Virus record (IMG/VR): IMGVR_UViG_2645728091_000012
DNA: 38,978 nt
Strand: one strand, 5' to 3'
Origin: a virus
Taxonomy: Duplodnaviria > Heunggongvirae > Uroviricota > Caudoviricetes
Shown here: piece by piece, positions 8,135 through 37,982 of the stretch
Layout of the letters: each line of letters begins with the position of its first letter
Numbering within the stretch: position 1 is the first letter of the stretch
The notes under the pieces: model-generated
What the model saw: only the letters and a program-made list of their open reading frames with translations
Databases searched by the model: none
Told to the model about the DNA's origin: nothing
Translations under genes and position numbers: made by a program

Positions 8135-8980
8135 ATGACAAAGCCTTCTCATTTTAGAACCCCTCTTCGTTATCCGGGAGGTAAGGCAAAATTCTTGCCA
8201 CATATTGAACAAATACTCCGCAACAATGATCTCATTGGTGGATGTTATGCTGAACCTTATGCAGGTGGAGCCGGTGTAGCATTAGGTTTGCTCCTTAACG
8301 GTCTTGTTGAAAATATCTTCATAAATGATATTGATCCTGCCCTTTATTCTTTTTGGTTTGCAGTGGTTAATCATAACGATCTGTTATGTGAAATGATTGA
8401 TGAAGTTCCTGTGACTATTGAAAATTGGCATACTCAAAAGGAGATACTCCTAAACAATGATAAATATAGTATGCTTGAAGTCGCATTATCAACTTTCTTT
8501 TTAAATAGAACAAACCGTTCAGGAATACTTAAGGCTGGCGTTATTGGAGGGAAAGAACAAAAAGGACCATGGAAGTTAGATGCAAGATTCAACAAAAAAG
8601 AGTTAATTAAAAGGATTGAACTAATTGGTGCATATAAGGAGAAAATTTACGTATCGAATTTTGATGCTGTAGATTTTCTGCTACACCAAAAAGCATTGCT
8701 ACCCCAAAATAGTCTAATATATCTTGATCCACCTTATTATGTTAAAGGAGCAGAGTTATATAGAAATTTTTATAAACATGATGATCATGTAAAAATCGCT
8801 AATACACTACGGGAAATTCAACTACCTTGGGTTGTGTCTTATGACAATGTGCCTGAAATAAAAAGCATATATCATGAATTCAACATGACTGATTATACGC
8901 TTAATTATACTGCACAAGATAAGAAAAAAGGTCTAGAAATTATCATTTATAATCATGGTATAAAAATCCCTGACATTTAA
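8135..8980 (+). CDS. N6-adenine DNA methyltransferase, Dam/D12 class
   Basis: Motifs seen directly: PGGK near N-terminus, EPYAGGAGV (AdoMet-binding FxGxG-like), FLNRTNRSG, catalytic DPPY; strongly AT-rich compared with flanking phage genes. Confidence 0.8.
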   Translation: MTKPSHFRTPLRYPGGKAKFLPHIEQILRNNDLIGGCYAEPYAGGAGVALGLLLNGLVENIFINDIDPALYSFWFAVVNHNDLLCEMIDEVPVTIENWHTQKEILLNNDKYSMLEVALSTFFLNRTNRSGILKAGVIGGKEQKGPWKLDARFNKKELIKRIELIGAYKEKIYVSNFDAVDFLLHQKALLPQNSLIYLDPPYYVKGAELYRNFYKHDDHVKIANTLREIQLPWVVSYDNVPEIKSIYHEFNMTDYTLNYTAQDKKKGLEIIIYNHGIKIPDI

Positions 8981-8997
8981 ATTTAAGGATGATATAG

Positions 8998-10695
8998 ATG
9001 ATTAAAGAAATTAGTTTTAAAAAATTTAAGAAACTGATAGATATTGACTTCTCATTCAATGAAGACATCAATATAATATCAGGAACCAATGGGACATGTA
9101 AGACAACATTGCTTCATTTAATTAGCAATGGTTTCCAAATGCCACCATCTCGATCACAAAATTATTCAAATAGTAATTGTGTTAGAGTTATAAAATCTAT
9201 AAACAAAATAGCCAACCCCAAAATGGAAGCAATTGTTAGGGAATCAAAAAATTACACCGATCCGGCAGAGGGAACAAAAGGTGTGTTATTTTCTATTAAC
9301 TATTTGGATCATAGCACACTAGACTTCAGAAAGCACAACTCAAAAAATCCAGACGAAGCGCAACGGTATGCTATCAAACCAGTATACCCACGCGGAAAAG
9401 AAAAACAATCACTTCCAGCTAAACCAGTTTTATATCTTGGATTATCGCGACTATTCCCGATTGGTGAAACTAAAGACGACGCCCTTACAAAAATTCCGTT
9501 AAACCTACCAGAAGAGTATGTTGGTTATATATCGAAAATATATAATGAACTTTTGGGCATTAATATTATAAATATAGAATCAAACAATATCGGAGATTTT
9601 AAAGCTGGCCCATTATTTGATACCGATAACCCAGCAATTGATTCTAATACCATATCATCCGGGGAAGACAATATATTCATTATAATCAAGGCATTAGTTA
9701 GCCTTAGGTATTATTTTGAATCACTTATTCAATCCACTGATCAAAAAGAAAGCATTCTGTTAATAGATGAATTTGATGCCACTTTACATCCTTCTTTACA
9801 GATAAGATTATTAGATAAAATTTATCAATACGCAAAAGATTATAAGATTCAAGTATTTTTCACAACGCACAGTCTGACATTGCTAGAATATGCTTTTCAT
9901 AAAAAATACCATGTTGTCTATCTAATTAACAATATTACAAAGGCTCTGCTTTTAGATAATCCTGACATATTAAAAATAACAATGTATCTGAAAACACAAA
10001 CAAAGGATGAGATATACACAAGGAACAAGATACCAGTTTTCACGGAAGATGAAGAAGCTCGCTTTTTATTTAATGAAATACTTGGTTATTGGATAAGCAA
10101 ATATCCAAATTTTGCTATAGTTAGTAATTCATTTCACTTAATTGATTGTTTCATTGGTGCAGACAATTTAAAAACTATTTTTAATGATTCTCATCTTAAG
10201 GAAACCTCGTTAAAATCAATTTGTATTCTTGATGGAGATCACAGCCCTGAGGATCAGAGAGGAATTATATCACTGCCGGGAGAAAAAGCTCCAGAACAAT
10301 TGATATTTGAGCATTGTGAGCACCTTTATAATACCGACGACTCTTCCTTCTGGGAAAATCAGGATATAATTAACAATGGTTTTTCGAAAGAGTTATACTT
10401 ACTCAAGATACGTCCTCAACTACAATCAATTGAAACTGAAATTCAGAAAAGAAAAGACAACCATGAGTCTACATCCGGTTTAAGAAGAAAATTAAATAAG
10501 AAAATATTCAATCAGCATATTGAATTCTTTAGAATGATTACAAGAAACTGGTTAGACAAACCAGAAAATCAGAAATCTCTCCAGTATTTTTACAATGGAT
10601 TACGATCCTTATTCTACCGGGTTACACCAACAAACGGCATTGACAGAAAAATTTGGGATTTTGACTATAACAAAATCATTAAAGAGGATAAATAA
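8998..10695 (+). CDS. OLD-family-like ATP-dependent nuclease: N-terminal ABC ATPase plus C-terminal TOPRIM-like domain
   Basis: Walker A GTNGTCKTT, SSGE signature-like, Walker B ILLIDEFD, H-loop FFTTHS; C-terminal FTEDEE and ILDGD about 55 aa apart, matching the TOPRIM Glu...DxD pattern; 17 bp after the methyltransferase; AT-rich. Confidence 0.65.
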   Translation: MIKEISFKKFKKLIDIDFSFNEDINIISGTNGTCKTTLLHLISNGFQMPPSRSQNYSNSNCVRVIKSINKIANPKMEAIVRESKNYTDPAEGTKGVLFSINYLDHSTLDFRKHNSKNPDEAQRYAIKPVYPRGKEKQSLPAKPVLYLGLSRLFPIGETKDDALTKIPLNLPEEYVGYISKIYNELLGINIINIESNNIGDFKAGPLFDTDNPAIDSNTISSGEDNIFIIIKALVSLRYYFESLIQSTDQKESILLIDEFDATLHPSLQIRLLDKIYQYAKDYKIQVFFTTHSLTLLEYAFHKKYHVVYLINNITKALLLDNPDILKITMYLKTQTKDEIYTRNKIPVFTEDEEARFLFNEILGYWISKYPNFAIVSNSFHLIDCFIGADNLKTIFNDSHLKETSLKSICILDGDHSPEDQRGIISLPGEKAPEQLIFEHCEHLYNTDDSSFWENQDIINNGFSKELYLLKIRPQLQSIETEIQKRKDNHESTSGLRRKLNKKIFNQHIEFFRMITRNWLDKPENQKSLQYFYNGLRSLFYRVTPTNGIDRKIWDFDYNKIIKEDK

Positions 10696-22672: not shown

Positions 22673-24702
22673 CAGTGAAATACTACGCCATTCTGACTAA
22701 TCAGGGCGCGGCACGACTGGCTAACGCGACGATGCTCGGCAGTAAGCTGAATCTGACGCAAATGGCCGTTGGTGATGCAAATGGTGTGTTACCAACACCA
22801 GACCCTGCACAAACAAAACTGATTAACCAGAAACGCATTGCACCGCTGAATCTTCTGAGTGTTGACCCTAACAATCAGAGCCAGATTATTGCGGAGCAAA
22901 TCATCCCTGAAAACGAGGGAGGATTCTGGATCCGTGAGATTGGTCTTTATGATGATGAAGGTGTACTCATTGCGGTGGCAAACTGCCCGGAAACGTACAA
23001 ACCGCAGTTGCAGGAAGGCAGTGGTCGTACCCAGACTATCCGCATGATTCTGGTTGTCACGAACACCGAAGCCATCACGCTGAAAATCGACCCGTCTGTG
23101 GTTCTGGCAACCCGCAAATATGTGGATGATAAAATCTCAGAGCACGAACAGTCACGACATCACCCGGACGCCTCGCTGACCGCAAAAGGTTTTACTCAGT
23201 TAAGCAGTGCAATTAACAGTGAATCAGAAACACTGGCCGCAACACCGAAAGCAGTTAAGGCTGCATATGACCTGGCTGACGGGAAATATACCGCCCAGAA
23301 CGCCACCACAACACAAAAAGGGATTGTTCAGCTCAGTAGCGCCACGAACAGCACGTCTGAAACGCTGGCAGCAACACCAAAAGCTGTTAAGGCGGTAATG
23401 GATGAAACGAACAAGAAAGCACCATTAAACAGCCCGGCACTGACCGGAACGCCAACAACACCAACAGCGCCACAGGGGACTAATAGTACCCAGATCGCAA
23501 GCACGGCTTTCGTTATGGCCGCGATTGCCGCACTTGTAGATTCGTCACCTGATGCACTAAACACGCTGAGCGAACTGGCTGCGGCGCTGGGCAATGACCC
23601 GAATTTTGCGACCACCATGACTAACGCGCTTGCGGGTAAGCAACCGAAAGATGCCACCCTGACGGCGCTGGCCGGGCTTGTTACTGCGGCAGACAGGTTT
23701 CCGTATTTTACGGGGAATGACGTTGCCAGTTTGGCAACCCTGACAGAAGTCGGGCGGGATATTCTTGCGAAATCGACCGTTGCCGCTGTTATCGAATACC
23801 TCGGTTTACAGGAAACGGTAAACAAGGCTGGTAACGCCGTTCAGCGTTCCGGCGATAAAATGACCGGAGAACTGAAAATTGGAACGATGAATGCGCTGCG
23901 AATTTTTAATGATGCCTTCGGTCTTATTTTCCGCCGTTCAGAAGAGTCCCTTCATTTCATCCCTACGGCTGAAGGACAAGGCGAAAACGGTGATATCGGC
24001 CCATTAAGGCCATTCGCTATAAATCTAAGAACAGGTGCTATATATGTCAGCCACGGGGCCAAAATTGAAGGAGGTCTAGCTATTGGTGCTACTGATAACG
24101 CACTGGGTGAAAACTCCATTGTTCTGGGAGATAACGACACCGGATTTAGGCAAGATGGAGATGGTATTATTAGCTTCTATTCAAATGGTTCGCGCATCGG
24201 ACATATTGATGGGTTAGGATTACATCTTTATAAAGATATTGAATCTAATTGCAGCAATTTTAGATTAAAAAGTAATTACCGCCACCACATTACATTCACC
24301 AACGAAGACGGAAGTATTCGTATGTTTTTGTGGAAAGATAACGGTGGTGATGGTGTTCATATTAATAACGGTTCAGATGGTGGTGGTGATTTCATTTTTA
24401 AAACAGATGGGGGATTTGCGCTGGGAAGTGGTGCGCAAGTTGCGTCTAGTGGCGATATTTATGGTTCAGTGTGGGGAAACAACTGGTTAAGCACATGGCT
24501 GCATAATCATGTCGTTCGGGATATTCGTCTTGGCAGCATTGAATATAAAAACGTATGGCGCGACTACGGCTTTGGCGATGCGTCAGGTTATGTTTTAACA
24601 GCCGCAATTAACGGCAATGCGGATGATCTTGTCGACACTGTTGCCAGAAGGCCAATTCAGAAATTGATTGGGGGAATATGGTACAACGTGGGGAGTGTTT
24701 AA
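22669..24702 (+). CDS. H: Tail fibre protein H (constant N-terminal part plus currently expressed variable C-terminal part)
   Basis: 677-aa ORF; internal tandem repeat [13 protein letters not shown] x2; contains recombination site at 23789-23814; AT-rich C-terminal receptor-binding part. Confidence 0.85.
23789..23814. repeat. Left crossover site of invertible segment (gix/hix-like, 26 bp)
   Basis: TTATCGAATACCTCGGTTTACAGGAA matches the reverse complement of the site at 26741-26766 at 24 of 26 positions. Confidence 0.8.
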
Positions 24703-25259: not shown

Positions 25260-25793
25260 TCATTCTGGTTGTTCTGGAAACGTTACTGGCAGGCTGGAGG
25301 TGTCTGTAGATTCGACTTTCTGCGCATAGAGCATCCACTCGGTTAATTTTTGTTTATTCTCGTCGGAAATGATGCCCAGCCGTAGCTGTGAGTCCCATAG
25401 CTGGGTTTTATCCCTGACAAGTTGCAACAGGCTTTGCTTTTCATTTTCCGCCTGTTGCCTCTGCTCTTCCCCGGTATAAGTTCGCTTTATCACTGCGCCA
25501 TCTTTGAACATCCATTTACCCGAAATATCAGCCCGGCGATTTGCTGTAATATCAGGTAATTCAACGACGCTTGCGCCTTCCGGATTAATTGCTGAAACAT
25601 CCTTTTCAATACAAATAATAACGCCGTTATGGTCATAGGCCATTTTCAATGTGTCTGGCCGGAAATTCTTTTGTTCCTCATACCAGTTTTTTCCATCATC
25701 TGAATAAAGCCATTTGATGTTAAATTGCTTTGTTAGCTGGTATTGCTCTTTTGTTTTAGGATTGCCAGCAGTAATGTTTTTTAAGTGCATCAT
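25260..25793 (-). CDS. Alternative tail fibre assembly chaperone (G')
   Basis: 177 aa; N-terminus nearly identical to G, then diverges. Confidence 0.8.
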   Translation of the reverse strand: MMHLKNITAGNPKTKEQYQLTKQFNIKWLYSDDGKNWYEEQKNFRPDTLKMAYDHNGVIICIEKDVSAINPEGASVVELPDITANRRADISGKWMFKDGAVIKRTYTGEEQRQQAENEKQSLLQLVRDKTQLWDSQLRLGIISDENKQKLTEWMLYAQKVESTDTSSLPVTFPEQPE

Positions 25794-25795
25794 AA

Positions 25796-26740
25796 TTAAA
25801 TACTCCCTGCGTTATACCACGTTCCATTAATGCAATACTGAATTGGCCTTGCCTGAGTTGTATCAATTAATTCATCACGGTTTCCGTTAACTGAACCAGT
25901 AACGACATAACCTGACCTGTCAGACCAGCCAGGACCATTCCATGTCTGAACAGATGACAGACCGCCAAGGCGAATACCTGTAATAAACCTTGAGTTACAT
26001 TCTGCCTGCGTATATGCACCAACATCTCCCGCAGAGGGTTTGCGTGTTGTGGTGTAAAACTCTGACCAGTTAGCTTCAAAGCCATAACCATCACGCGCTG
26101 AACGATAAAAGATACCGCCATTTCTGTAATTCACGCGGAACTGTACAGCAGGGCAACTCCCCGCATTCATATTAAAGTGGAGGATTAATGTCGATGCGCC
26201 ACTGATATCTGCATTATAAACGCCGCTATTCCAGTTCCAGCCAACAGCTTTATCATTTGCAACCCTGCTTCCTGTTTGCCCTAAAGCAAATGCAGGCTGC
26301 TGGTTTTTCGTGTTGTAGTCTCGTCGCCAGCCAGGAGCGTAAGCATCACCATGATTAATATAAGTGAATTGAGCGTTAGTGATTCCGCCGCCGCTGGACG
26401 TACTCGGCGTGGTAACGCGTATGGTCATTGCGCCGCGAGTGCCAATAACTTCCACCACAGCACCTGCAAGACAAATATTTCCGCAACCTGTATCTGTAAT
26501 GACCTTATTGTTTGCATAAGCCCATGAGCCTTTGCACATCCAGTAAGGATGGTTAAATGCTCCCTGACTCTCCAGCCACGAAATAAATTGCGCGGTTGTC
26601 CAGACCTGACTATCACCACCAATATTCAGCCATGCGCTATATGCGCGGCAGGCACCAATATTTTTGGTGAAGGTATCTTTTCCTGGAATATCTGCGCCGT
26701 TCTGGTTTTTCTGTAATGCGCCAGAAGCCTGATTTACCGT
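25796..26740 (-). CDS. Alternative tail-fibre C-terminal variable segment (silent orientation, no own start)
   Basis: Reading the minus strand from the right crossover site is open and in frame with the H constant part after inversion; C-terminus GTWYNAGSI parallels H's GIWYNVGSV. Confidence 0.75.
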   Translation of the reverse strand, partial: TVNQASGALQKNQNGADIPGKDTFTKNIGACRAYSAWLNIGGDSQVWTTAQFISWLESQGAFNHPYWMCKGSWAYANNKVITDTGCGNICLAGAVVEVIGTRGAMTIRVTTPSTSSGGGITNAQFTYINHGDAYAPGWRRDYNTKNQQPAFALGQTGSRVANDKAVGWNWNSGVYNADISGASTLILHFNMNAGSCPAVQFRVNYRNGGIFYRSARDGYGFEANWSEFYTTTRKPSAGDVGAYTQAECNSRFITGIRLGGLSSVQTWNGPGWSDRSGYVVTGSVNGNRDELIDTTQARPIQYCINGTWYNAGSI

Positions 26741-26766
26741 TTCCTGTAAACCGAGGTTTTAGATAA
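26741..26766. repeat. Right crossover site of invertible segment (gix/hix-like)
   Basis: TTCCTGTAAACCGAGGTTTTAGATAA, inverted copy of the site inside H. Confidence 0.8.
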
Positions 26767-26820
26767 TGGCCGTTTCCGGCCTGCATGGCATGATTTGCGC
26801 TTTTGGACGGGAGATTCAGT

Positions 26821-27411
26821 GTGCTGATTGGTTATGTAAGGGTATCAACAAATGACCAGAATACAGACCTGCAACGAAACGCTCTTGTTTGTGCAGGATG
26901 TGAACAAATATTTGAAGATAAATTAAGCGGAACAAAGACAGACCGACCGGGATTAAAACGCGCTTTAAAGCAGCTTCAAAAAGGTGACACGCTGGTTGTC
27001 TGGAAACTGGATCGCCTTGGGCGAAGCATGAAACATCTGATTTCTCTCGTCGGAGAACTACGGGAGCGAGGGATTAATTTTCGCAGTCTGACCGACAGCA
27101 TAGATACATCTTCTCCAATGGGGCGTTTTTTCTTCCACGTGATGGGTGCCCTGGCTGAAATGGAACGTGAATTAATTGTTGAACGTACACTGGCCGGACT
27201 GGCGGCAGCGCGCGCACGGGGGCGCACAGGCGGACGTCGACCGAAGCTGACAAAAGAACAGCATGAGCAAATAGCAAGGCTGATTAAAAACGGTCACGAC
27301 AGAAAACAACTGGCAATAATTTACAGCATTGGTATATCGACAATTTATCGTTACCACCCCGCAGGAGAATCAAGTGGAACAATTGAGAAGAGTAAACAAA
27401 ATAACCGCTAA
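26821..27411 (+). CDS. Serine DNA invertase (Gin/Hin/Pin/Cin family)
   Basis: Begins (V)LIGYVRVSTNDQ with catalytic Ser context; resolvase-type N-terminal domain and C-terminal HTH; next to invertible segment. GTG start at 26821 preferred over ORF-track TTG 26803. Confidence 0.85.
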   Translation: MLIGYVRVSTNDQNTDLQRNALVCAGCEQIFEDKLSGTKTDRPGLKRALKQLQKGDTLVVWKLDRLGRSMKHLISLVGELRERGINFRSLTDSIDTSSPMGRFFFHVMGALAEMERELIVERTLAGLAAARARGRTGGRRPKLTKEQHEQIARLIKNGHDRKQLAIIYSIGISTIYRYHPAGESSGTIEKSKQNNR

Positions 27412-27434
27412 TCTGGCCATTAGCGGTTTTTGTG
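27403..27434. terminator. Bidirectional intrinsic terminator between invertase and gene U
   Basis: AACCGCTAAT-CTGGCC-ATTAGCGGTT stem-loop flanked by A-run upstream and T-run downstream. Confidence 0.65.
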
Positions 27435-27439
27435 TTAAA

Positions 27440-27934
27440 TCAGAACAGCCCTTTAACGGAGCTGGCCGCGCTGTTAAGGGATGATGTGACCTTATCTTTG
27501 AAGCCGGACAGCATATCACTGAACGATGAGGATTGCAGGCGTTCCCGCAAATCCTCATCGCAGCGTTCAAGAGTCAGTGAAAACTCTATCTTTTTCGCCT
27601 TGCCGTAGCGATCAAACTCGGAACGGGTCGTATTCGTTTCAGTCAGTACATACATGCCGTAAATCTGCCCGACACCATCAATCAGAGGCCAGGGGCGTCC
27701 TGTATATGCCTGCGTGGTCAGCAACGAAAGCGACACTTCGCCACCTGTAATTTCAGGATAAAGCACGCCGGAAAGCACGATGCGATCATCACCTGCGCCG
27801 ATATACTGCCAGCTTGCTGAACGGTTAACGCGTTCATTTTTCACATGCCGCCAGCTTTTGTTTTGCTGTAACTGCTGATGCGGCAATGTGCGCAGCTCAA
27901 AAACAAACATGCCGTAGATCATCATCATGGCCAT
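27440..27934 (-). CDS. U: Tail protein U-like
   Basis: 164-aa ORF; gpU-like features (SWRH, YGMYV). Confidence 0.8.
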   Translation of the reverse strand: MAMMMIYGMFVFELRTLPHQQLQQNKSWRHVKNERVNRSASWQYIGAGDDRIVLSGVLYPEITGGEVSLSLLTTQAYTGRPWPLIDGVGQIYGMYVLTETNTTRSEFDRYGKAKKIEFSLTLERCDEDLRERLQSSSFSDMLSGFKDKVTSSLNSAASSVKGLF

Positions 27935-27940
27935 GACTCC

Positions 27941-30763
27941 TCAATCTTTATCGTAAAAACTGCCACGCCCGGCACGGGCGCGCCGTTCCATTTCTGCCCT
28001 GACCATTTCGCCAATCAGTTTCGCCAGTTCGCGGGGATTCTGTGTAACAACGTTATGCAGATGAACATGAATTTCACCGCCAAATCCGGAGGCAACAGGC
28101 TCCCGGTTACGGGAAGTTGCAGGAACTGATGCCACTGGCGATCGTATAGCCTCCGCCACCGGGCGGGAGCTGGCCGCAACAACAGGGACCAGCGCCGGAG
28201 GCAGCGGAGCCGGAACCACGGGTGTGATAGTAATTGCGGGGGCAGGCTTACTGACCTGCGCAATCTTCCGCTCCTGCCACTCCCCACGAACAGCAAGTGC
28301 GCGGGGCAGGTTCTTAAAGACAATATCGCCGGGGCCAATGCGTTTTTTCGTCTCATCAACCAGCTTACCTGTGTTATCAGCAATTTTGCTGAGTCTGCGT
28401 AGCGTACCGGTATTGTTGTCTGTGAGCGGTTTGTTGTCTCTGGGTTTATCGCCTTTTTTGTCGTCGACCTTATCTGACGGGGCCGGGCCGGGAGTCCATG
28501 GTTTCTGAACCATTTTCTTGAGAACCGGATCCCATTCCCACATTACAGGAGCCTTTGAAGCGTTCTCTATTTTCTTTCTCGCCCGTTCCGCTTCATCCGG
28601 AAGCACTCCGAGCTTTTCAAGTATCCACGCCAGTGAATCCATCAATGCTTTTGTTGGCGTCAGGACAAGCTCTATCGCTCCACCGAGTACCCTGCCGAAT
28701 ACCTCGCCAGCACTGGTACATTTATCCAGCGTTTCCTTGCTGGACTCCATCGGTGACAGCAGCGATTTAAACCAGTTAAAGACCTGAATAATCCCATCGC
28801 GCACGACATCAAAAACTGGACCGAACCGTTCAAAGGTTTCGCGCAACGGAGCCAGCCGTTCCATAATCCCACTGAACACCCCTGCATAAAACGCCTTGAT
28901 GGGTTCCCAGTATTTCCAGATGAGAACCGCCGCAGCCACAAACGCAGCAGCAATCAATCCGACCGGGCTGAACAGCGCCCCGATAGCGCCCCCCAGTAAC
29001 GAAACGGAACCCGTCACCATTCCCCATAGTGCTGGCAGGAGCCTGACAGCATTCATTGATCCGGTCAGGAGGGAAAAGCCAAGACGCAGTTTTGCCAGCG
29101 GGCCAGCAAGCACACCAATAGCCAACGACAACGAGCCGACCGTTGCAGTCATCGCCAGCAATGCCCCACCTGCAATCAGTAGCTGGCGCGTCAGTGCCGG
29201 ATGGGCCTGCGCCAGCGCCGTCACCTTTGATACCACCCGCGTGAGCCACTGCGTGACAGAACGCAGCGGACCGTCAATCAGATCTGCAATGCGGATGCGC
29301 AACCCTTCCCATGCACTGCCGAGTGATTTCAGATCGCCGTCAAGGTTGTTGTCCATAACCTTTGCTGTGCGTTCAGCCTCACCGCGCGCGCCTTCAAGTT
29401 CTTTTCTCAGTTTGGGTAAGGAGCCGTCACCCGCTGCATCAACGAGCGCCATAAACGATGTGAAAGCCTCTTCTCCGGCAATGTCCTTAAAGAACGATAC
29501 CCGGTCAACTTCCCCGTATTTGCGGGTGGCTTTATAAAGGTCGGCCAGTACATCCTCCATCGGGCGCATTTTGCCGTTCGCGTCAGAGACAGCCACACCC
29601 AGCTCTTTCAGCGCCTCTGCTGCCGCCTTTGGCGGTGATGCCAGACGAGCCAGGCTGGCACGCATTGCCGTCCCGGCATCACTCCCTCTGATGCCCATAT
29701 TCGCCAGCACGCCCGCCATCGCAGCGGCCTGCTCCAGCGATATTCCCAGCTTACCCGCCACCGGACCTGCATATTTCATGGTTTCGCCCAGCGCGCGAAG
29801 GTCAGTGTTGGTACGGGTAAACGCCGCTGTAAGCGTGTCGCCAACCCGGTCCATCTGGTCAGCAGAGAGGCCGAACTGCGTCAGGATATTTGAGCCAATA
29901 TCCGCCGTCTCGCCGAGATCCATACCGCCAGCCGTTGCCATGCTCAGCACGCCGGGAAGCGCAGCCTGAATGGCCTGCGGAGTAAAACCAGCCATTGCAA
30001 GAAATGCCTGTCCACTGGCGGCATCTCCAGCGGTGAACTGCGTTTCAGAGCCAAGTTTTAACGCCTGCTCACGCAGCGCCTTAAACTGTGGGCTGTTTTT
30101 GTCGATTCGCGTCAGTGCCTGAACGCGGGACATCTCTTTCCCGAACCCAATCGCGGGCTGCAAAAAACGCCCGGCAGCATAGCCGCCCGCCGCTGCCGCA
30201 CCTGTTGCCAGTGCACCACCTGTTTTCAGTTTTCCCGCGGTTTCCTGCGCGCGCGAATACCGCTCACGCGCCCGCGTTACACGCGCAAGCGCCTGCCGTT
30301 CGCGTTCAAGCTGGTTGTTGTACTGTTCGGTGCGTCTGATGGCCTGCTGGATGGTGTTATCGCTGCCTGTCAGGGAAATGCCGTGGCGTTTCAGCTCTCC
30401 GCCAAGTTCCCGCATTTTCTGAATTTCCCGTGTGCGCGATTCATTCAGGCGTTCAAGCCGGGTGCTTAACTGCTGCATCAGCTTTTGTTGTTTTTCGCTG
30501 AGCACTGTACCCGTGCGTTGTAACTGATTAAGGGCGTTAAGCTGGCGTCGTGCTTTCACGATGCCCGCATCCGCTTTACTGACAGCGTCACGGGCGCGCT
30601 CAAATGAACGCGCCTGACGCTCGAGATTTTTGATCGCCCCCTGCGTTCGCTGGATGGAGTCACCAAACTGCCCCATCAGGCGGCGGGCGTTTTCGGCAGG
30701 CCGGGTCAGCCTGTCAACGGCGCTGAAAGCGACCCGGATATCAAGAGTCTTCATTGTCTGCAT
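27941..30763 (-). CDS. T: Tail tape measure protein (gpT-like)
   Basis: 940 aa; coiled-coil N-terminal region, Gly/Ala-rich hydrophobic central region; follows the chaperone genes. Confidence 0.85.
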   Translation of the reverse strand: MQTMKTLDIRVAFSAVDRLTRPAENARRLMGQFGDSIQRTQGAIKNLERQARSFERARDAVSKADAGIVKARRQLNALNQLQRTGTVLSEKQQKLMQQLSTRLERLNESRTREIQKMRELGGELKRHGISLTGSDNTIQQAIRRTEQYNNQLERERQALARVTRARERYSRAQETAGKLKTGGALATGAAAAGGYAAGRFLQPAIGFGKEMSRVQALTRIDKNSPQFKALREQALKLGSETQFTAGDAASGQAFLAMAGFTPQAIQAALPGVLSMATAGGMDLGETADIGSNILTQFGLSADQMDRVGDTLTAAFTRTNTDLRALGETMKYAGPVAGKLGISLEQAAAMAGVLANMGIRGSDAGTAMRASLARLASPPKAAAEALKELGVAVSDANGKMRPMEDVLADLYKATRKYGEVDRVSFFKDIAGEEAFTSFMALVDAAGDGSLPKLRKELEGARGEAERTAKVMDNNLDGDLKSLGSAWEGLRIRIADLIDGPLRSVTQWLTRVVSKVTALAQAHPALTRQLLIAGGALLAMTATVGSLSLAIGVLAGPLAKLRLGFSLLTGSMNAVRLLPALWGMVTGSVSLLGGAIGALFSPVGLIAAAFVAAAVLIWKYWEPIKAFYAGVFSGIMERLAPLRETFERFGPVFDVVRDGIIQVFNWFKSLLSPMESSKETLDKCTSAGEVFGRVLGGAIELVLTPTKALMDSLAWILEKLGVLPDEAERARKKIENASKAPVMWEWDPVLKKMVQKPWTPGPAPSDKVDDKKGDKPRDNKPLTDNNTGTLRRLSKIADNTGKLVDETKKRIGPGDIVFKNLPRALAVRGEWQERKIAQVSKPAPAITITPVVPAPLPPALVPVVAASSRPVAEAIRSPVASVPATSRNREPVASGFGGEIHVHLHNVVTQNPRELAKLIGEMVRAEMERRARAGRGSFYDKD

Positions 30764-31279
30764 TCCCGCTGCGAAGTGCCGCCCGCTCGCGCCAGCTAAC
30801 CACTTCGCCGGGCGTCATCATGAAGATTTCGGCGGGCGACCAGTTAAAAATGGCGGCAATATCCGCCACCAGATCTTCGATGTGCTCAAAGCACACCAGG
30901 GTGATTACGCTGCCGTCTCCTGCACGCTCTTCGCGCCAGAGTCTGGCTCGCTCATAAAATTTACAGCCACAGCGCACAACTGAATAAAATCGCGTGACGA
31001 CATTTTTTTAATCATCACTTCATCCAGTCGTGGCGAGGTCACGCGAGGCAACAGCGTGAACATGGTATCCGCTTTCAGATTCAGCACATCAGACAGCGAC
31101 AGACCACGCAGGGATCCCGCCTGCTCAATAGCCCCGGTGATCTCCACATATGTGATTTTTTCGCCACCACGCTCAATTGGCCGGGAAAGTTTTACACCAC
31201 GTTCGACAGCCATATCCTCACCTGCCGTCACATCATCCGCTACGGTGTTATTCCGGGTTTCAGTATCGATATCTTTCAT
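30741..31279 (-). CDS. Tail assembly chaperone E+E' (-1 programmed frameshift product)
   Basis: -1 frame is open from 31007 to 30741 and overlaps the T start; a run of 7 A on the mRNA (plus-strand T7 at 31003-31009) lies where the -1 frame opens; analogous to P2 E/E' and lambda G/GT. Confidence 0.6.
30905..31279 (-). CDS. E: Tail assembly chaperone E
   Basis: 124-aa ORF between tail tube gene and tape measure gene. Confidence 0.75.
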   Translation of the reverse strand: MKDIDTETRNNTVADDVTAGEDMAVERGVKLSRPIERGGEKITYVEITGAIEQAGSLRGLSLSDVLNLKADTMFTLLPRVTSPRLDEVMIKKMSSRDFIQLCAVAVNFMSEPDSGAKSVQETAA

Positions 31280-31334
31280 CAGTTGTCTCCTTTTCAGTCA
31301 GAGGCGACGCACTGCGCCGCCTGCATATTACTTA

Positions 31335-31847
31335 TCAGCCAAGCCCAAGCGCGGAACGAATGCGGTCAGGCACAATGTCCTTGCCGTCCTTCCGGTAGAT
31401 GTGGTTCAACAGGTCGATTTCCCACAGCGGGCGATCGTTAACGCTCAGCTTGTAGTAGGTGTTTTTGACAGCGTAAGTGTGTGATGTGGCTTCGCCCTGT
31501 TTGGCCTCCCCCATATCAATTTCCGTCACACGCCCGCGCATCTCGATTTCATACAGATCGCTTTCTGCATCGGTGTAGTATTCACCCGCAAAACGCAGCA
31601 GCGTGCCGTCAATCGTGCCGCCATATTTAAGGAACAGCGCACGAACAGCTCCCCCCATGACAAAACTCGCATCAAGCGCGGAGTCGTCCAGACCGAGATC
31701 AATACTTACCGCCCCCATCATGCCACCACCACGATAGCTGTCGGTTTTGCGCGTCAGTTTGGGTGGCGTGACGGATGTCACTTTACCCACTTCGTTTTCA
31801 CCATCCACAAACAACGTAAAAAAGCGAAGATGTTTTGGTACAGCCAT
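31335..31847 (-). CDS. FII: Tail tube protein (gpFII-like)
   Basis: 170-aa ORF immediately after sheath gene. Confidence 0.8.
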   Translation of the reverse strand: MAVPKHLRFFTLFVDGENEVGKVTSVTPPKLTRKTDSYRGGGMMGAVSIDLGLDDSALDASFVMGGAVRALFLKYGGTIDGTLLRFAGEYYTDAESDLYEIEMRGRVTEIDMGEAKQGEATSHTYAVKNTYYKLSVNDRPLWEIDLLNHIYRKDGKDIVPDRIRSALGLG

Positions 31848-33031
31848 CAGGCACCTCCCAGCACCGCAAATGCGGGACCAAAGAATTCATCAGTAAACGA
31901 CTGGTAAAGCTCCATGTCTTCCAGCGGGGGAACAGGCGTATATTTGTAGCGAATACGCACACGCCCCTGACGTAAATTCGTGGTGCCGTTATCCACCACG
32001 TCATACCAGCACGACGCCCCAATCAGTTTCCCGGCAGTAACCAGTGAATCCAGTTTTGCCCTGATGGCACTGATAACATCTTTCACGTTCGCAGGCGTCA
32101 GTGGACTGTCGATGGTTTCAAACTGCGCTTCCGCAATTGAATCAGCCAGCACCTGTGCGGTTCGGGTATACACCTCAAAGATGTAGGCGTTCGTTTCCGG
32201 TGTGCGGTTGCCCCAGAAGCGGAACCCGTTGCGACGAATAATGGTCGTGATTTCTTTGTTGTTGAGGCTGTTGGCATCGCTGTCTTCGGCCTGCAACGAC
32301 CAGAACACATGCCTCGACATCCCCAGCACATTTTTAACCGGAACGTTGGACAGCGATTTGTGCCAGCCCTGCTCATGGTCAATGTACGCACGAAGGCCGC
32401 ACGCATAAGCAGGCGCGGGGAACGTTTCGTTTTTGCCACTTTTCGGGTTGTAGGCGATGAAGTCAGGCCATAAGAGCATCACCTCACGTTCGTTGAATTT
32501 CTGGCGGTAGGTAATCGCCTCAGCCATCGTGTTACAACCATGACATGCGGCATACACAAACGCGCGCAGTTTACCCGCAATCACGCACAGGGATTTTGTC
32601 ACCGCCTCCGTGTCCAGCTCCGGCGCGGCCAGAATACGCGGACGGTATCCGATGCTTTCATCCTGCTCTGCAACAAGCAGCGCATACATCCCCGTATAGC
32701 TGCCGTCAGATTCAGAACCACCGATAACCAGTTGATCCTGCGTCTTTCCGTTTTCTTCTTTGTGTTCAGCCACGCGAACGACGATCACCTTTGTGCTCAC
32801 CTGGTCTGCGATGGCCTTAAGCGCACGATAAAGCGTCCCCGTTGTCCCGCATTTTCCCAGCACGTCATTGACGCGGGTCAGCAGTGTGGGCTTGTTCAGC
32901 GGGAACAGCTTCGCGTCCGCATCATCCGCCGTTGCCACGATACCGATAACGCTGGAATCAACATCGTTAATCGCTGTTACCAGGTCGGTATTTTCCGTAA
33001 CACGGGCACCATGAAAACGAGTTTCACTCAT
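31847..33031 (-). CDS. FI: Contractile tail sheath protein (gpFI-like)
   Basis: 394 aa; gpFI-like (FPLNKP, LRAFVYA, WPDF, GWHKSLSNV, RNGFRFWGNRT, TPVPPLE). Confidence 0.85.
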   Translation of the reverse strand: MSETRFHGARVTENTDLVTAINDVDSSVIGIVATADDADAKLFPLNKPTLLTRVNDVLGKCGTTGTLYRALKAIADQVSTKVIVVRVAEHKEENGKTQDQLVIGGSESDGSYTGMYALLVAEQDESIGYRPRILAAPELDTEAVTKSLCVIAGKLRAFVYAACHGCNTMAEAITYRQKFNEREVMLLWPDFIAYNPKSGKNETFPAPAYACGLRAYIDHEQGWHKSLSNVPVKNVLGMSRHVFWSLQAEDSDANSLNNKEITTIIRRNGFRFWGNRTPETNAYIFEVYTRTAQVLADSIAEAQFETIDSPLTPANVKDVISAIRAKLDSLVTAGKLIGASCWYDVVDNGTTNLRQGRVRIRYKYTPVPPLEDMELYQSFTDEFFGPAFAVLGGA

Positions 33032-33106
33032 AGCTTCAGCCCCTTGTATCCGTTAAATGATTCGGCAACAATCATCACCCACCACGCGCGTAATCTCACC
33101 CCTGCG

Positions 33107-33136
33107 CCGTTCTCCCGACCCGGCGACAACAAAAAG
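33107..33136 (+). promoter_or_regulatory. Candidate late-promoter element upstream of gene D (CCGTTCTCC ... ACAACAAAAAG)
   Basis: Shares both motifs with the element upstream of gene O (14228-14273). Confidence 0.35.
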
Positions 33137-33187
33137 CAGTAACCCCCTCCGCACGCACATGCGACCATGCCGCACAGGGAGGGAAAG

Positions 33188-34297
33188 ATGACCGACACCA
33201 CCATGCAATTGCTCAGTCAGAGCACAGACCCCGTGAAAATGCCGGATTTTGATATTCTCGCGGAGGGTAAAACGCTGTCAGGCGTGGCAGAGCGCCTGAT
33301 GAGCCTGTCACTGACCGACAACCGGGGATTTGAAGCGGACCAGCTCACCATCACGCTGGATGATGCGGATGGTCAGTTGCAGCTACCGCCACGGGGCGCG
33401 CGCCTGACGGTTCTCATTGGCTGGAAAGGCGAACCGCTGACAGAAAAAGGCTCTTACATTGTCGATGAAATCGCACACGAAGGACCGCCGGACAGGCTGA
33501 CTGTTTCAGCCAGAAGCGCAGATTTTCGGGATGAATTTAACGTTAAACGTGAGGTGTCCTGGCATGATGTGACCGTTGAGCGTGTGGTATCCGCCATCGC
33601 TCATCGGTACGGTCTGAAACCGCAAATCAGCGAAATGCTGATGCATATCGAAATCGACCACGCCGACCAGACCGAAGAAAGTGACATGTCCTTCCTTACG
33701 CGCATGGCGGAAATGCTGGGCGCAATCACCACGGTAAAAAGCGGTAATCTGTTATTCATCATGCCCGGCGGTGGCGTGAACGCACAGGGCCAGCCGTTGC
33801 CATCGTTCGCCATCACACGCAGCAGCGGCGATCGCCATCAGTTCCGCATTGCTGACCGCGAGGCGTATACGGGGGTACGCGCTTACTGGCTTGATCTTAA
33901 TTACGGGAAAAAGAAAAAAGTCAGCGTGAAACGCCGCAAACCGCCAAAACCCAAAAAGGAGAAAAGCAGCAGCCGTGAAGGTGATTATATGGAAGGCGCG
34001 GAAGGCAATGTGTTTGTGTTACGCAAGACTTATCAGAACGAGCAGGCAGCAAGACGCGCAGCGGCGGCAAAGTGGCAGCAGCTACAACGCGGAGCCGCAT
34101 CATTCTCCATCATGCTGGCACGCGGACGCGCAGAACTCTACCCCGAAATGCATGGCACGGTAACAGGCTTTAAAAGCGAGATTGATAATCAGGACTGGAT
34201 TATTGCAAAAGCCGAGCACACCATTGATAACAGCGGCTTTACCACACAGCTTGAGCTTGAGGCAAAAATCCCGGAATGGATAGCAGAAACAGAGTGA
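33188..34297 (+). CDS. D: Tail protein D-like (late control gene D family)
   Basis: Start taken at MTDTTMQ (GGGAGGG RBS 5 nt upstream) rather than ORF-track 33167; size and family features match gpD. Confidence 0.75.
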   Translation: MTDTTMQLLSQSTDPVKMPDFDILAEGKTLSGVAERLMSLSLTDNRGFEADQLTITLDDADGQLQLPPRGARLTVLIGWKGEPLTEKGSYIVDEIAHEGPPDRLTVSARSADFRDEFNVKREVSWHDVTVERVVSAIAHRYGLKPQISEMLMHIEIDHADQTEESDMSFLTRMAEMLGAITTVKSGNLLFIMPGGGVNAQGQPLPSFAITRSSGDRHQFRIADREAYTGVRAYWLDLNYGKKKKVSVKRRKPPKPKKEKSSSREGDYMEGAEGNVFVLRKTYQNEQAARRAAAAKWQQLQRGAASFSIMLARGRAELYPEMHGTVTGFKSEIDNQDWIIAKAEHTIDNSGFTTQLELEAKIPEWIAETE

Positions 34298-34365
34298 GCA
34301 ACTTAGACATATTAGCTCAGACTTAAACTGGCAAGTTTACAGTATAGAATTAAACATAAACGACG

Positions 34366-34393
34366 GTCCGCTCCGTGTCAGAAGCGGACTTTG
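34366..34393 (+). terminator. Candidate terminator after gene D
   Basis: GTCCGC ... GCGGAC stem followed by TTTG. Confidence 0.45.
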
Positions 34394-34417
34394 TCATCCC
34401 TATGTAAGGTTGATTGC

Positions 34418-35440
34418 TTAATACGCATTTAATTTAAATTTGTATTTGCCTTCTATGTAATGGATAAATTCAATTATGCTTTTTTCTATCGCATCTAATA
34501 TATGAATATATCCATCCCGATTTAAGGTCCTATCCAACTCAAAGTGATGAACTATCCCATGTCTATATTGTATGATTTCAGAAATTCGATTCTCAAGAAA
34601 ATCAACTGATTTTCCAATTCTTTTTTTCTTATAAAGAATCGCTCTCACATCTATATCCAGCCACTCTTTATATGCTTTATTTAGGTGGGTTAAGTTTTGA
34701 AAAGTGTAATTTCTTGCAATAACACTTTCTATTGAAATATTTCCTTTCTCTATCTCAAGCAGAATATCAAAATCAACTTTTTGCTTATACGATGTTCTTT
34801 TTGCTATTGCGAAAGGATCGTACTTTATAAGTATTTGAAAAGCTCTAGAGAAAAAATATTCAAACATAGCAACCGCAAAAGGTACTAATCCATTATATAT
34901 AACTCTACTGGGATCCATACATTGCATGTAATCAAAGTATTCGGATAAGCCGCCATCTTCCGGTAGGTTTAATTTAATAGAAGGTTCAGGTAAGGCATGT
35001 TTAACAGCGGAAATCTCATGATGGACATGATTAAATATTGAAGAAATGCCACGACTGATCGGACTACTAGAATCCTTCCATAGAGGAGCGTACCTATTTT
35101 TCCCATAATCACCTATAAGTGTTCCACCAAAAAGACTCCGTGCGCCTTTTAGAACATCATTAAGCATTTTTACATCATGCCAACTAGCGCTATATAAATT
35201 ACGCACATGCAATGCCCATTTATTACCAGATATGTGTAGTTCGTCATTTGAAACAGGATATATATCAGCCGAAACTCCATCTGTAGATTTGAAGTCCGTA
35301 TCATCAAACCAAGAGTAATTCAACGTTCCTTGGGGCCATTCCCACAAATGTTTACACCTTTTAAAACCTAAATTTTCAAGGTAATTTTTAAGTTCGTTTC
35401 TAGTTGCTTTTTTAGGGTACAGCGTTATATCTCTTCCCAT
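34418..35440 (-). CDS. Hypothetical accessory (moron) protein; weak HEPN-like Rx4H motif (RHGIVH) near C-terminus
   Basis: 340-aa ORF antisense to flanking late genes, markedly AT-rich, inserted between D and ogr; AT-rich promoter-like flank. Confidence 0.6.
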   Translation of the reverse strand: MGRDITLYPKKATRNELKNYLENLGFKRCKHLWEWPQGTLNYSWFDDTDFKSTDGVSADIYPVSNDELHISGNKWALHVRNLYSASWHDVKMLNDVLKGARSLFGGTLIGDYGKNRYAPLWKDSSSPISRGISSIFNHVHHEISAVKHALPEPSIKLNLPEDGGLSEYFDYMQCMDPSRVIYNGLVPFAVAMFEYFFSRAFQILIKYDPFAIAKRTSYKQKVDFDILLEIEKGNISIESVIARNYTFQNLTHLNKAYKEWLDIDVRAILYKKKRIGKSVDFLENRISEIIQYRHGIVHHFELDRTLNRDGYIHILDAIEKSIIEFIHYIEGKYKFKLNAY

Positions 35441-35631
35441 GCTTTATTCACCTGATATACAATATTTTAAATTTTAACTATTATGAACGTATGAATTTTC
35501 ACATTGGATGTATGGAAGTTCAACAACTATTGAAAGTTCAATTTTCACTCTTCGCACAGAGCGAGCTGTTAGTTGGAATTAGGGATCGTACAATCTAGAA
35601 TAGCGGCAACACCACGTTAAGGGAGGTCGCT

Positions 35632-35892
35632 ATGTTCCGTTGTCCGCTTTGTGCCGCATCTGCCCGTATCCGCACAAGTCGTCCGGAAAATGATTCAAAC
35701 ACCGTGCGGCAAAAATATTACCAGTGTAACAATCTGGAATGCGGCGTATGCTTCTCAACACTGGAAGCTTTCCATAAATTCACATCGAAACACGCCTCCG
35801 GCGTTCACTCTTCAGAAGGTATCCCGTGGCATGAGCTACCAGCTTCACACAGGGGAAACAATCAGATGAGTTTGCCTTTACCTAAGAATTAA
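35632..35892 (+). CDS. ogr: Late-gene transcriptional activator, Ogr/Delta zinc-finger family
   Basis: MFRCPLCAA...RTSR...YQCNNLEC: C-x2-C...C-x4-C zinc finger as in P2 Ogr; AAGGGAGG RBS. Confidence 0.85.
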   Translation: MFRCPLCAASARIRTSRPENDSNTVRQKYYQCNNLECGVCFSTLEAFHKFTSKHASGVHSSEGIPWHELPASHRGNNQMSLPLPKN

Positions 35893-36082
35893 CAAGCAGA
35901 ATTGCCGGAGTAACAAAAAAGCGATAGATTACGCGCGGGTGCCTTTCGGCTGATGGTCGGAGGGAATACCCGAAGGCCAGATGTGGAAAGGCCCCGGAAA
36001 ACACTTTTGTTTAACCGAGGCCCTAACCGTCTACCCTAAGCAAGTGAAAGGTTAGCGCCTCTCCGGAAAAGGAGCAAGTGCT

Positions 36083-36223
36083 ATGTCGCAAAAATCGCTT
36101 ACAGCCATCACGTTCTGCGTGACGGTAATCCTCATCATCTGGATGTTGCACGGTTCGCTGTGCGAAATACGGATGAGTTTCTGGGGAGCGGAGTTTGCGG
36201 CGTTCTTACAGTGTAAGCAGTAA
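36083..36223 (+). CDS. Hok/Gef-family type I toxin-like small membrane peptide
   Basis: 46 aa; hydrophobic N-terminal helix then SLCEIR and EFAAFLQCK, close to the Hok pattern (SLCE..., E.AAF.AC); AAGGAG RBS. Confidence 0.6.
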   Translation: MSQKSLTAITFCVTVILIIWMLHGSLCEIRMSFWGAEFAAFLQCKQ

Positions 36224-36232
36224 GGAAACCGC

Positions 36233-36254
36233 GACGGGGGAGTAATCCCCCGTC
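36233..36254 (+). other. Stable hairpin just past the hok-like stop (GACGGGGG-AGTAAT-CCCCCGTC)
   Basis: Perfect 8-bp G/C-rich stem; no U-tract, so possibly an mRNA 3' structural element rather than a terminator. Confidence 0.4.
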
Positions 36255-36484
36255 AATCGGTTGCCAGGGTAAGGTCGATAAGGCACCCTATCTCACGGCT
36301 CTAAATGCAAAAATTCCATGAAACTGTGGGATTTTTGCATCACTACTGATACAGATCTGACCTTCTTTATGTCTCACTCTATACCAGCTAATCAATTGAC
36401 ACTTATCAATAAAAAAAAATCTGATAAAATCAAAATGTTTTGTAACAAATATCAACTCGTATTGATCCAAAGGAGGCGGATTAC

Positions 36485-36817
36485 ATGGCATTAATCAAAT
36501 GTCCTGAATGCCAGAAAGAGGTGAGCGATTCAGCATTGTATTGCCCTGCTTGCGGTAAACAAATAAAAAAACTTAAGCGTTCATTTTTTGGAAAGCTCAT
36601 TAAGTGGATTTTTATATTATTTAATATTTTTATGATCTATACGCTTTTAGTTGGACTGGGAGGCACTAGTGAAATAATAAATAATGCAACATCCGATGCC
36701 GAAAAAGCCGGTGTAGTTATTGGTACAGGCTTAGGTTTAATTACCATTGGAAGTTTATGGGTTATTGGCGATATCATTATCGGAATTTTAGTGTTTCTTA
36801 CTAAACCAAAAGGATAA
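36485..36817 (+). CDS. Zinc-ribbon membrane protein (hypothetical)
   Basis: CPEC...CPAC zinc ribbon at N-terminus plus two hydrophobic helices; strong RBS AAGGAGGCGG; AT-rich. Confidence 0.6.
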   Translation: MALIKCPECQKEVSDSALYCPACGKQIKKLKRSFFGKLIKWIFILFNIFMIYTLLVGLGGTSEIINNATSDAEKAGVVIGTGLGLITIGSLWVIGDIIIGILVFLTKPKG

Positions 36818-36821
36818 CAAA

Positions 36822-37715
36822 ATGAAAAATATAATTTTTTCTATAGGTGCATCATTTATATCAATTAGTGTACTGCCTGTTCACGCAGCAACTGAACATA
36901 ATAACTTCAATGCAGTACTCCAGTGCCGAGCAATAGAAAATAATAAAGACAGACTTTCTTGTTACGATAAGTCAATACAACCGACTCGAACGAAAGTTGC
37001 TGAAAAATTCGAAAGCAGAGATCAATGCCCTGATGAGAAAGATGATGACAGACGTTTATCTTGTTATGATCGTTTTTTTTCTCCAACATTTACTCCATCT
37101 GTAAACTCAAAATCTAAAACGGAAAAGCTAGTAACAACAGAGGCTCAGCAACCAAATCTTTCTGAGATATCTAAATGCCGAGCAGAAAATGATAAAGAAG
37201 CCAGACTAAACTGCTACGATAAACTATTCCCACAGGATAAAGCTGTTCAAGCTGAATCAAAATTAGAGAAAGCCACAGATGTAGGAAAATGGCACACATC
37301 CATTACTACATCGCCAATTGATGATTCGAAAAATGTAATTTTATCGTTAGAAAGTGATGATTATATCAGAACTCCATTTGGAGAAGCGGTTACTCCTACT
37401 CTGTTTATAGCTTGCCGAGAAAAGAAAACCGAAGTATTTCTTAGTTGGGATGTATATTTAGGCCTTGAACAAACCAGCATGCTTTATCGTCTTGATAAAC
37501 AGAAAGCAGTTGAGCGAAACTGGCTAGTATCTACAGATACAAAGGCTGTTTTTTATAAAGGTAATGACATTGATTTCATCCGAAAACTAGCCAACTCAAA
37601 CAAAATGTATACAAAAATAACTCCTTATAATGAGAGCCCTGTAAGTGCAACTTTCAATTTAAACGGCCTGTCAAACGCGCTAAAACCACTTCAAGCTGCT
37701 TGTAACTGGAAATAG
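36822..37715 (+). CDS. Exported protein with three Cys-pair repeats (hypothetical)
   Basis: Sec-type signal peptide (..VLPVHA/ATE); three repeats of C-x(9-12)-RL[SN]CYD[KR]; AT-rich; 4 bp after previous gene. Confidence 0.6.
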   Translation: MKNIIFSIGASFISISVLPVHAATEHNNFNAVLQCRAIENNKDRLSCYDKSIQPTRTKVAEKFESRDQCPDEKDDDRRLSCYDRFFSPTFTPSVNSKSKTEKLVTTEAQQPNLSEISKCRAENDKEARLNCYDKLFPQDKAVQAESKLEKATDVGKWHTSITTSPIDDSKNVILSLESDDYIRTPFGEAVTPTLFIACREKKTEVFLSWDVYLGLEQTSMLYRLDKQKAVERNWLVSTDTKAVFYKGNDIDFIRKLANSNKMYTKITPYNESPVSATFNLNGLSNALKPLQAACNWK

Positions 37716-37743
37716 CATAAATCATGTGGCTTAGCCACAATCA

Positions 37744-37785
37744 CAGATAACACAAAGCCCGTGAAAACGGGCTTTGTGTTATCTG
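37744..37785 (+). terminator. Strong hairpin after the exported-protein gene
   Basis: Perfect 18-bp inverted repeat CAGATAACACAAAGCCCG / CGGGCTTTGTGTTATCTG with 6-nt loop. Confidence 0.5.
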
Positions 37786-37798
37786 TAACTCGAAAATG

Positions 37799-37817
37799 TG
37801 GTCACTACGTGGACACG
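37799..37817. other. Candidate attR core (imperfect direct repeat of 11-29)
   Basis: GTGGTCACTACGTGGACAC vs GTGGACACTGCGTGGACAC at 11-29 (17 of 19 identical); the left copy overlaps the integrase 3' end. Confidence 0.35.
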
Positions 37818-37982
37818 TGCTGATATAAATCCTTTTATATCAATAAATTAAATCATCATTTTTTTCATCAACAAGGATTTTCACGTTTGTGTTACCTGTA
37901 TGAGACGAGAGTTAACCAGACAAGTGTGCCATAATCTCGCGGCCAGGCATACTTGCGAAGATTTCAGGTATAAGGATACGTA

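Follow-up and report, generated by a model that had tools for sequence, protein, structure and literature searches.

Between tail gene D and the late-gene activator ogr of a P2-like E. coli prophage lies a gene that is best described as a solo HEPN moron, probably of the abortive-infection type, whose product carries an apparently novel N-terminal domain and which sits in a real cargo hotspot. The DNA analysed, referred to here as the window, is a stretch of 38,978 nucleotides from a tailed virus (Caudoviricetes; IMG/VR record IMGVR_UViG_2645728091_000012), and the gene is called X below.

Gene X and its locus

X (34418..35440, minus strand) is an open reading frame (ORF) of 340 aa with an ATG start, the coordinates including the stop codon. 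It lies on the strand opposite to both of its neighbours, tail gene D on the left (33167..34297, plus strand; Pfam Phage_GPD, E=2e-17) and ogr on the right (35632..35892, plus strand; Pfam Ogr_Delta, E=1e-12). The GC content across X and its flanks is 0.29–0.40, compared with 0.52–0.60 in the adjoining tail genes; within X itself the value is 0.336, whereas the prophage on its left side has 0.514. An earlier inspection of the letters alone (the sequence-only reading) had singled out this low-GC antisense ORF and had noted that D and ogr are adjacent in canonical P2. Both observations hold: in the P2 reference, D occupies 22791..23954 and ogr 24036..24254, and only the 81 bp gap that contains the ogr promoter separates them. 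X is no chance reading frame, since it is backed by 295 database homologues that match over their full length at 64–87% identity, and by a family of 284 representative clusters at 50% identity.

The protein family and its C-terminal HEPN domain

The 295 full-length homologues come from Escherichia, Pantoea, Proteus, Shewanella, Aeromonas, Pseudomonas, Halochromatium and Methylococcaceae, and essentially all members of the family are 330–350 aa long with the same two-part layout. Searches of PADLOC, NCBIfam and PHROGs gave no family assignment for X. PADLOC-DB v2.0.0, which includes PD-T4-2, PD-T4-5, PD-T7-3, ApeA and the Abi families, returned 0 families for X at E<=1, and only two unrelated single hits were obtained when PADLOC was run on 52 relatives. 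We found no publication on X or mentioning its accession, and X is absent among the DefensePredictor supplement entries listed.

Conservation was mapped on an alignment of these 52 diverse homologues (19–73% identity). Six residues are invariant (G55, D89, E194, F247, R293 and H298), and a further nine are at least 90% conserved (S86, N94, F104, G105, G106, G113, N183, Q248 and H294).

Three independent lines of evidence (profile, conservation of the motif, and fold) place the all-helical C-terminal half of X (aa ~177–333; 34442..34912, minus strand) in the HEPN superfamily. The Pfam family HEPN_RiboL-PSP (PF18735) aligns with residues 181–329 (profile positions 29–189 of 191), at a sub-threshold score for X itself (22.5 bits; gathering cut-off 28.4). 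It matches 38 of the 52 relatives at E<=0.01 (best 4.3e-10), and a precomputed match exists for most close homologues. The second line is the Rx4H motif R293-H-G-I-V-H298 (RHGIVH; 34547..34564, minus strand), which is predicted to be catalytic. The sequence-only reading had taken this motif as a hint of a HEPN-like protein while calling it weak evidence that could occur by chance. Weak it is when considered alone, but no position in the C-terminal half is more conserved than R293 and H298, neither of which varies even in homologues at 19% identity, and the caveat about chance is thereby removed.

For the third line, the structure of X was modelled using AF2. A first model, built from 20 close homologues, had a pLDDT of 78 with the motif loop below 50, and was replaced by one built from the 52 diverse sequences (pLDDT 93.9, pTM 0.87). 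The latter consists of an α/β domain (residues 1–~113), a long linker helix (127–149) and an all-helical domain (~166–333) with a HEPN fold (four-helix up-down core), and it superposes on many solved HEPN domains; structures named beside the model are TT1696, HI0074, AF0298 and sacsin, as well as RnlA/LsoA and Csm6. A Foldseek search of the model against the PDB gave no significant match, and the family profile searched against PDB sequences retrieved HepT toxins only, at an insignificant score (E=0.57), in an alignment that sets RHxxxH of X onto the catalytic RNIAVH of HepT toxin 6m6w.

Some HEPN proteins are non-catalytic binders, so X might instead be a HEPN protein without RNase activity, binding a nucleotide or other ligand or acting as a scaffold, or it might serve a role unconnected with phages, for example in stress response or inter-bacterial competition. 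The facts that no defence database recognises the family and that many homologues sit in housekeeping neighbourhoods are in keeping with such a role. We nevertheless regard it as quite unlikely: the R and H of the motif, together with E194 and N183, are kept over deep divergence, a signature of catalytically active HEPN families, and a patchy distribution driven by horizontal transfer, with consistently low GC, is atypical of a housekeeping function.

The N-terminal domain

Apart from RHGIVH, the sequence-only reading saw no recognisable motif in X. The motif is present as described, but the statement overlooks a second strongly conserved domain at the N-terminus. This α/β domain (aa 1–125; 35066..35440, minus strand), in which G55 and D89 are the invariant residues, is conserved as strongly as the HEPN half and is a candidate sensor or regulatory module. 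It has no match in Pfam, PHROG, NCBIfam or PADLOC. A profile search with the N-terminal domain only recovered just fragments and truncated members of the X family, with no other architecture; because its own family was all that it returned, the search offers no evidence for a sensor module shared with other proteins, and the domain appears to be family-specific. An L-PSP/RidA identity was considered and ruled out, as it had neither Pfam nor fold support. X thus does not have the fusion that gave the PF18735 family its name.

The D–ogr junction as a cargo hotspot

We collected 109 loci with close relatives of D, comprising 29 species representatives and the best 80 of 416 IMG/VR hits, and sought ogr downstream of D in each; both genes were found in 105. 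The junction was empty in 68 of these (D–ogr distance 40–100 bp), while the other 37 carried inserts of 1.0–3.8 kb. The inserts represent at least 16 unrelated cargo types with a GC content of 0.26–0.41, placed in either orientation. X itself was present in two surveyed loci besides the window, three in all. It is therefore an insertion, as had been proposed, and across the 105 junctions it is not a gene conserved at this position in all P2-like phages, the situation named beforehand as one that would speak against cargo.

Several of the other cargoes have recognisable relatives. They include a 732-aa KAP NTPase (PADLOC PifA, E=1e-64), a DUF2971 protein (PDC-S31, E=6e-27), a 527-aa protein with GmrSD_N and HNH domains, two different proteins with PIN domains, one DUF3800 protein and one ParA-like ATPase. 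Multigene inserts were also seen: a pair of 120 and 930 aa (L088), with a HetE-N domain on the 120-aa protein, and a four-gene set (L112) with two radical-SAM proteins. The D–ogr junction behaves as a defence/moron hotspot, and the earlier view that the insertion site and composition of X are typical of defence cargo is upheld by the low GC of the other cargoes and by the PifA-like, PDC-S31/DUF2971, GmrSD_N+HNH, PIN and DUF3800 proteins among them. From this context and from its domain content, we infer a defence or exclusion activity for X.

A number of cargoes in the sample are poorly annotated. Those of L046 (229 aa), L010 (384 aa), L039 (478 aa) and L067 (487 aa) have no annotation at all, while those of L079 (186+134 aa), L088 and L112 and the Providencia cargoes of 406–434 aa at L028, L030, L035 and L036 have no or only partial Pfam/PADLOC assignments. 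With five loci, the 229-aa cargo is the most frequent one sampled. These weakly annotated cargoes are further candidate accessory or defence genes. Two of the surveyed records are assigned to Firmicutes, namely L010 (titled Vagococcus sp. WN89Y) and L031 (a metagenome-assembled genome titled Planococcaceae bacterium UBA3378). Their D and ogr proteins share 96–100% and 74–98% amino-acid identity, respectively, with those of this enterobacterial P2-like prophage, and L031 also has X; they are most likely contaminating or misbinned contigs.

The inserted cassette and its handles

Comparison with empty junctions by blastn (L009, L044, L050 and L056) and comparison of the flanks delimit a cassette of ~1.29 kb (~34308..35595; GC ~0.35). 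Unrelated cargoes share flanking 'handles', which we compared at the inserts of L010, L039, L041, L042, L046, L051, L057, L067, L079, L081, L088, L095, L099, L111 and L112 and which have diverged to 75–93% identity. The left handle (34298-34417), directly after the D stop codon, contains a terminator-like hairpin with a 9-bp stem and six GC pairs (34366..34389), called on both strands by a terminator scan. It lies between the converging ends of D and X, just past the X stop codon, and a related hairpin is found at the same place in other D–ogr cargo variants. At the other end of X, a Shine-Dalgarno sequence read from the DNA (AGGTGA; 35448..35453, minus strand) stands 7 nt upstream of the start codon, and an AT-rich 155-bp leader/promoter region (35441..35595, minus strand) extends upstream of it. 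In that leader, the σ70-like hits of a promoter scan did not rise above shuffled expectation.

The same scan identified a σ70-like ogr promoter, TTGGAA-17 nt-TAGAAT (35573..35601, plus strand), in the right handle (35540-35631). The pattern TTGGnn-17 nt-TA(G/A)A(A/C)T is fixed 59 nt from the ogr ATG in the window and in 13 of 15 other cargo variants, matching the place where the ogr promoter is annotated in P2. In empty junctions the -10 hexamer is retained, and D coding sequence stands in place of the -35.

The cassette is also bounded by direct repeats, TAGA/ACTTAGA (the 7-bp form being ACTTAGA), and by an imperfect terminal inverted repeat that is best preserved in L051 (31 nt, 71% complementary). 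We considered whether the shared flanks are transposon-like ends, that is, terminal inverted repeats with target-site duplications, and rejected the idea, since the inverted repeat is clear in one variant, L051, and degenerate in the window. Much of the conservation of the right handle appears better explained by the ogr promoter than by transposon ends; the repeats may be traces left by a founding event that resembled transposition. The predicted elements would allow the cassette to insulate its cargo from transcription of D while supplying an ogr promoter of its own, which would explain why the slot tolerates cargo in either orientation. The shared handles thus suggest an insulated cassette slot.

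The same locus bears on the question of whether X serves the phage itself. Because it is antisense between two late-function genes, beside the late activator, and its cassette has an ogr promoter, X could be an RNase or RNA-binding regulator of induction or lytic growth, either modulating D and ogr through its antisense position or shutting off the host. This is very unlikely. The junction is empty in 68 of the 105 close relatives and holds unrelated cargo, in either orientation, in others; X occurs at 64–82% identity in non-P2 contexts and in non-phage islets; and the ogr promoter is part of the handle, not of X.

Distribution and neighbourhood of X

The cassette was found in 65 of 5426 complete E. 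coli genomes, once in each and nearly identical, and the exact X protein is present on at least 1000 contigs in a large collection. X resides in prophages, one P4-like island and small chromosomal islets; no copies were found on plasmids. We examined eight independent homologue neighbourhoods: an ssb–ppa islet in Shewanella, a locus in Aeromonas, a P4-like island in Pseudomonas (L007, 7343-11340) with an integrase, AlpA and a DUF927 primase, a lambdoid prophage in Pantoea that also has SIR2_2, and four metagenomic or chromosomal contexts. They have no gene in common. On the Pseudomonas island, the homologue comes directly after MvaT, an H-NS-like xenogeneic silencer, and before a pair formed by a UvrD helicase and a 276-aa protein.

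When X is compared between hosts, nucleotide homology runs from the start codon to a point within the ORF. In every host X is richer in AT than the DNA around it, and it could therefore be subject to silencing of the H-NS/MvaT type. As far as these comparisons go, they show X to be a foreign, AT-rich, single-ORF unit with its own predicted ribosome-binding site and terminator-like hairpin and with no partner gene. The partner search itself was negative throughout: the two upstream ORFs that had seemed possible partners, one in Shewanella and one in a metagenomic relative, bear no relation to one another, no MNT antitoxin gene is present in the window insert or beside the homologues in the eight contexts, there is no ParB neighbour in those contexts, and Rfam identifies no RNA in the insert. 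A HEPN–MNT model for X was rejected on the outcome of this search.

These results are relevant to a toxin–antitoxin-like reading, in which X would be an addiction element, a HEPN toxin neutralised in cis by its own N-terminal domain or by a small RNA or peptide that has escaped recognition. X would then act mainly to stabilise the cassette or prophage by post-segregational killing and not to block phages. The nearest solved structures are the HepT toxins of HEPN–MNT modules, the prophage also has a hok/gef killer gene immediately downstream of ogr, and X does behave as a selfish single-ORF unit. Against this, no MNT gene or other conserved neighbour occurs in the eight contexts, and the flanking DNA is unrelated between hosts, so that no conserved antitoxin ORF or RNA can accompany X. 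Within the cassette, the ribosome-binding site, the 155-bp leader, the hairpin past the stop codon and the lack of any Rfam RNA leave neither room nor conservation for an antitoxin. Plasmid-type addiction would also bring little gain to a chromosomal prophage, and we consider this reading unlikely.

Proposed function

We think it rather probable that X is a lysogenic-conversion gene encoding a self-contained HEPN ribonuclease for abortive-infection or exclusion defence. If X works like HepS, AbiD/F, RnlA and other HEPN systems, dimerisation via the HEPN domains would bring two Rx4H motifs together in a single metal-independent RNase site. The protein would be made in the uninfected lysogen and kept inactive, probably by the N-terminal domain, which is the likely inhibitor as X comes with no antitoxin. 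When a heterologous phage infects, the N-terminal domain may sense a signal from it, either a phage protein or an infection-induced change, and the RNase would be released. Cleavage of tRNA, mRNA or rRNA would then stop translation and abort the infection, protecting the clonal lysogens and their prophage.

A bolder version can be put forward tentatively, and we see it as possible though doubtful: that X founds a new single-protein HEPN Abi family, that its N-terminal domain is a new phage-sensing module and, at the same time, that the D–ogr junction is a dedicated insulated slot where conserved handles, made up of the hairpin, a portable ogr promoter and remnants of terminal inverted and direct repeats, frame the exchange of unrelated defence genes. 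A dedicated slot, if real, would imply a specific mechanism of cassette exchange as opposed to random illegitimate recombination, and the handles, which restore the ogr promoter and insulate the cargo, would be a starting point for learning how hotspot cargo is swapped without damage to the phage. If the defence function is confirmed, X would add a widespread one-gene HEPN immune family of about 284 clusters at 50% identity, present on at least 1000 E. coli contigs, and the junction would become a further site at which to mine P2-like prophages for defence genes. Its sensor domain would be new, and identification of the trigger could reveal another route by which phage infection is recognised. 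Neither solo HEPN defences nor P2 hotspots are new as concepts, so to a specialist X is expected rather than surprising; it is a good experimental candidate, if conceptually an expected one.

Other features of the prophage

The FI-FII-E-T-U tail block lies on the minus strand beside a DNA invertase and an alternative tail-fibre cassette and is inverted relative to P2. D is consequently not the last gene of the F operon, as it is in P2, and begins a rightward unit of its own. The region concerned (25260-33031) comprises the invertase (26803-27411, plus strand; Resolvase+HTH_7) together with minus-strand genes for tail-fibre assembly and for an alternative tail-fibre C-terminus. An invertase with inverted adjacent genes at the Z/fun locus has been remarked upon in the iLund4u preprint, and the arrangement in the window fits that description. 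The D protein in public phage record 500465-2 has 413 aa (1242 bp), whereas the longest in-frame D ORF in the window has 376 aa; a separate 44-aa ORF in another frame lies upstream (33057-33191), where IHE3034 has an annotated pseudogene fragment. The discrepancy at the 5' end of D may reflect a difference in start site or a frameshift.

At the gpA–gpQ hotspot, the window contains a two-gene unit (8135-10695, plus strand) encoding a D12-class adenine methyltransferase (PADLOC PD-Lambda-5_B, E=9e-122) and a 565-aa OLD/ABC-type ATPase (AAA_15/AAA_21; weak PtuA/AriA/GajA-type matches). Counting this unit and X, the prophage has at least two accessory loci of defence type. Another accessory region (35893-37861) lies between ogr and the prophage end. 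In it are a Hok/Gef-type toxin ORF (36083-36223, plus strand), a membrane protein with a zinc ribbon (36485-36817; phrog_6586) and a low-GC TagO/VasI-like protein (36822-37715) that bears a signal peptide. The ogr and hok part is also seen in other P2-like prophages, and the zinc-ribbon and TagO part is present in 236 of 5426 E. coli genomes. Host DNA begins at ~37862 with the pdxB/flk intergenic region, followed by flk. In the early region, Rfam identifies isrK, an Hfq-binding sRNA, and a C4 antisense RNA back to back (4210-4407, plus strand).

Comparison with known systems

HEPN proteins are typically dimeric, metal-independent RNases with composite Rx4-6H sites (PMC3710099). The best family match for the C-terminal domain of X is RiboL-PSP-HEPN (PF18735; Anantharaman et al. 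2013, PMC3710099), with which it shares an Rx4-6H motif of the active type. HEPN domains of this type occur in validated defence systems, namely PD-T4-2_B and a GNAT-HEPN protein. The founding PF18735 members are fused to an L-PSP endoRNase or lie in ParB operons; X does neither, and its N-terminal domain differs from those of the RiboL-PSP-HEPN members. The family has been described as a distant relative of AbiD/AbiF. Like X, the lactococcal AbiD, AbiD1 and AbiF proteins (Abi_2) are single proteins of ~350 aa with a HEPN effector, but X has no Pfam Abi_2 match and the kinship is taken from the literature. HepT toxins of HEPN–MNT modules (Shewanella SO_3166; PDB 5yep, 6m6w and 7ae2) are smaller (~130–140 aa) and always occur with an AMPylating MNT antitoxin. 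X differs from them in having no MNT neighbour, in the replacement of their AMPylated Tyr by F300, and in its additional N-terminal domain and linker helix.

The D–ogr junction shares the logic of the P2 moron loci, a conserved backbone with a slot in which low-GC defence cargo is swapped. Surveys have described P2 hotspots at gpA–gpQ (old/tin) and at Z/fun in the tail genes (Rousset 2022, PMC9122126; NAR 2026, PMC13586616; iLund4u preprint), together with int–att, int–primase and a 'third hotspot between a tail protein and CI'. The D–ogr junction and its handles are named in none of PMC9122126, PMC13586616 and the iLund4u preprint.

In terms of function, comparison with HepS is the most instructive. 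HepS is a 'HEPN Solo' abortive-infection protein encoded, with no inhibitor, by the Gifsy-1 prophage of Salmonella; it is inactive by default, and activation by a phage tail-tip protein leads to cleavage of tRNA anticodon loops and abortion of the infection (PMC13043305). The two proteins have no detectable sequence homology, as a profile search against the PDB at E<=10 came back without HepS, and HepS (~218 aa) does not have the 125-aa α/β N-terminal domain of X. The prophages differ too, HepS belonging to a lambdoid phage and X to a P2-like one, with different slots. Like HepS, however, X is a single gene that occupies an accessory slot of a prophage and is not accompanied by a conserved partner or inhibitor, and by this analogy HepS is its closest functional precedent.
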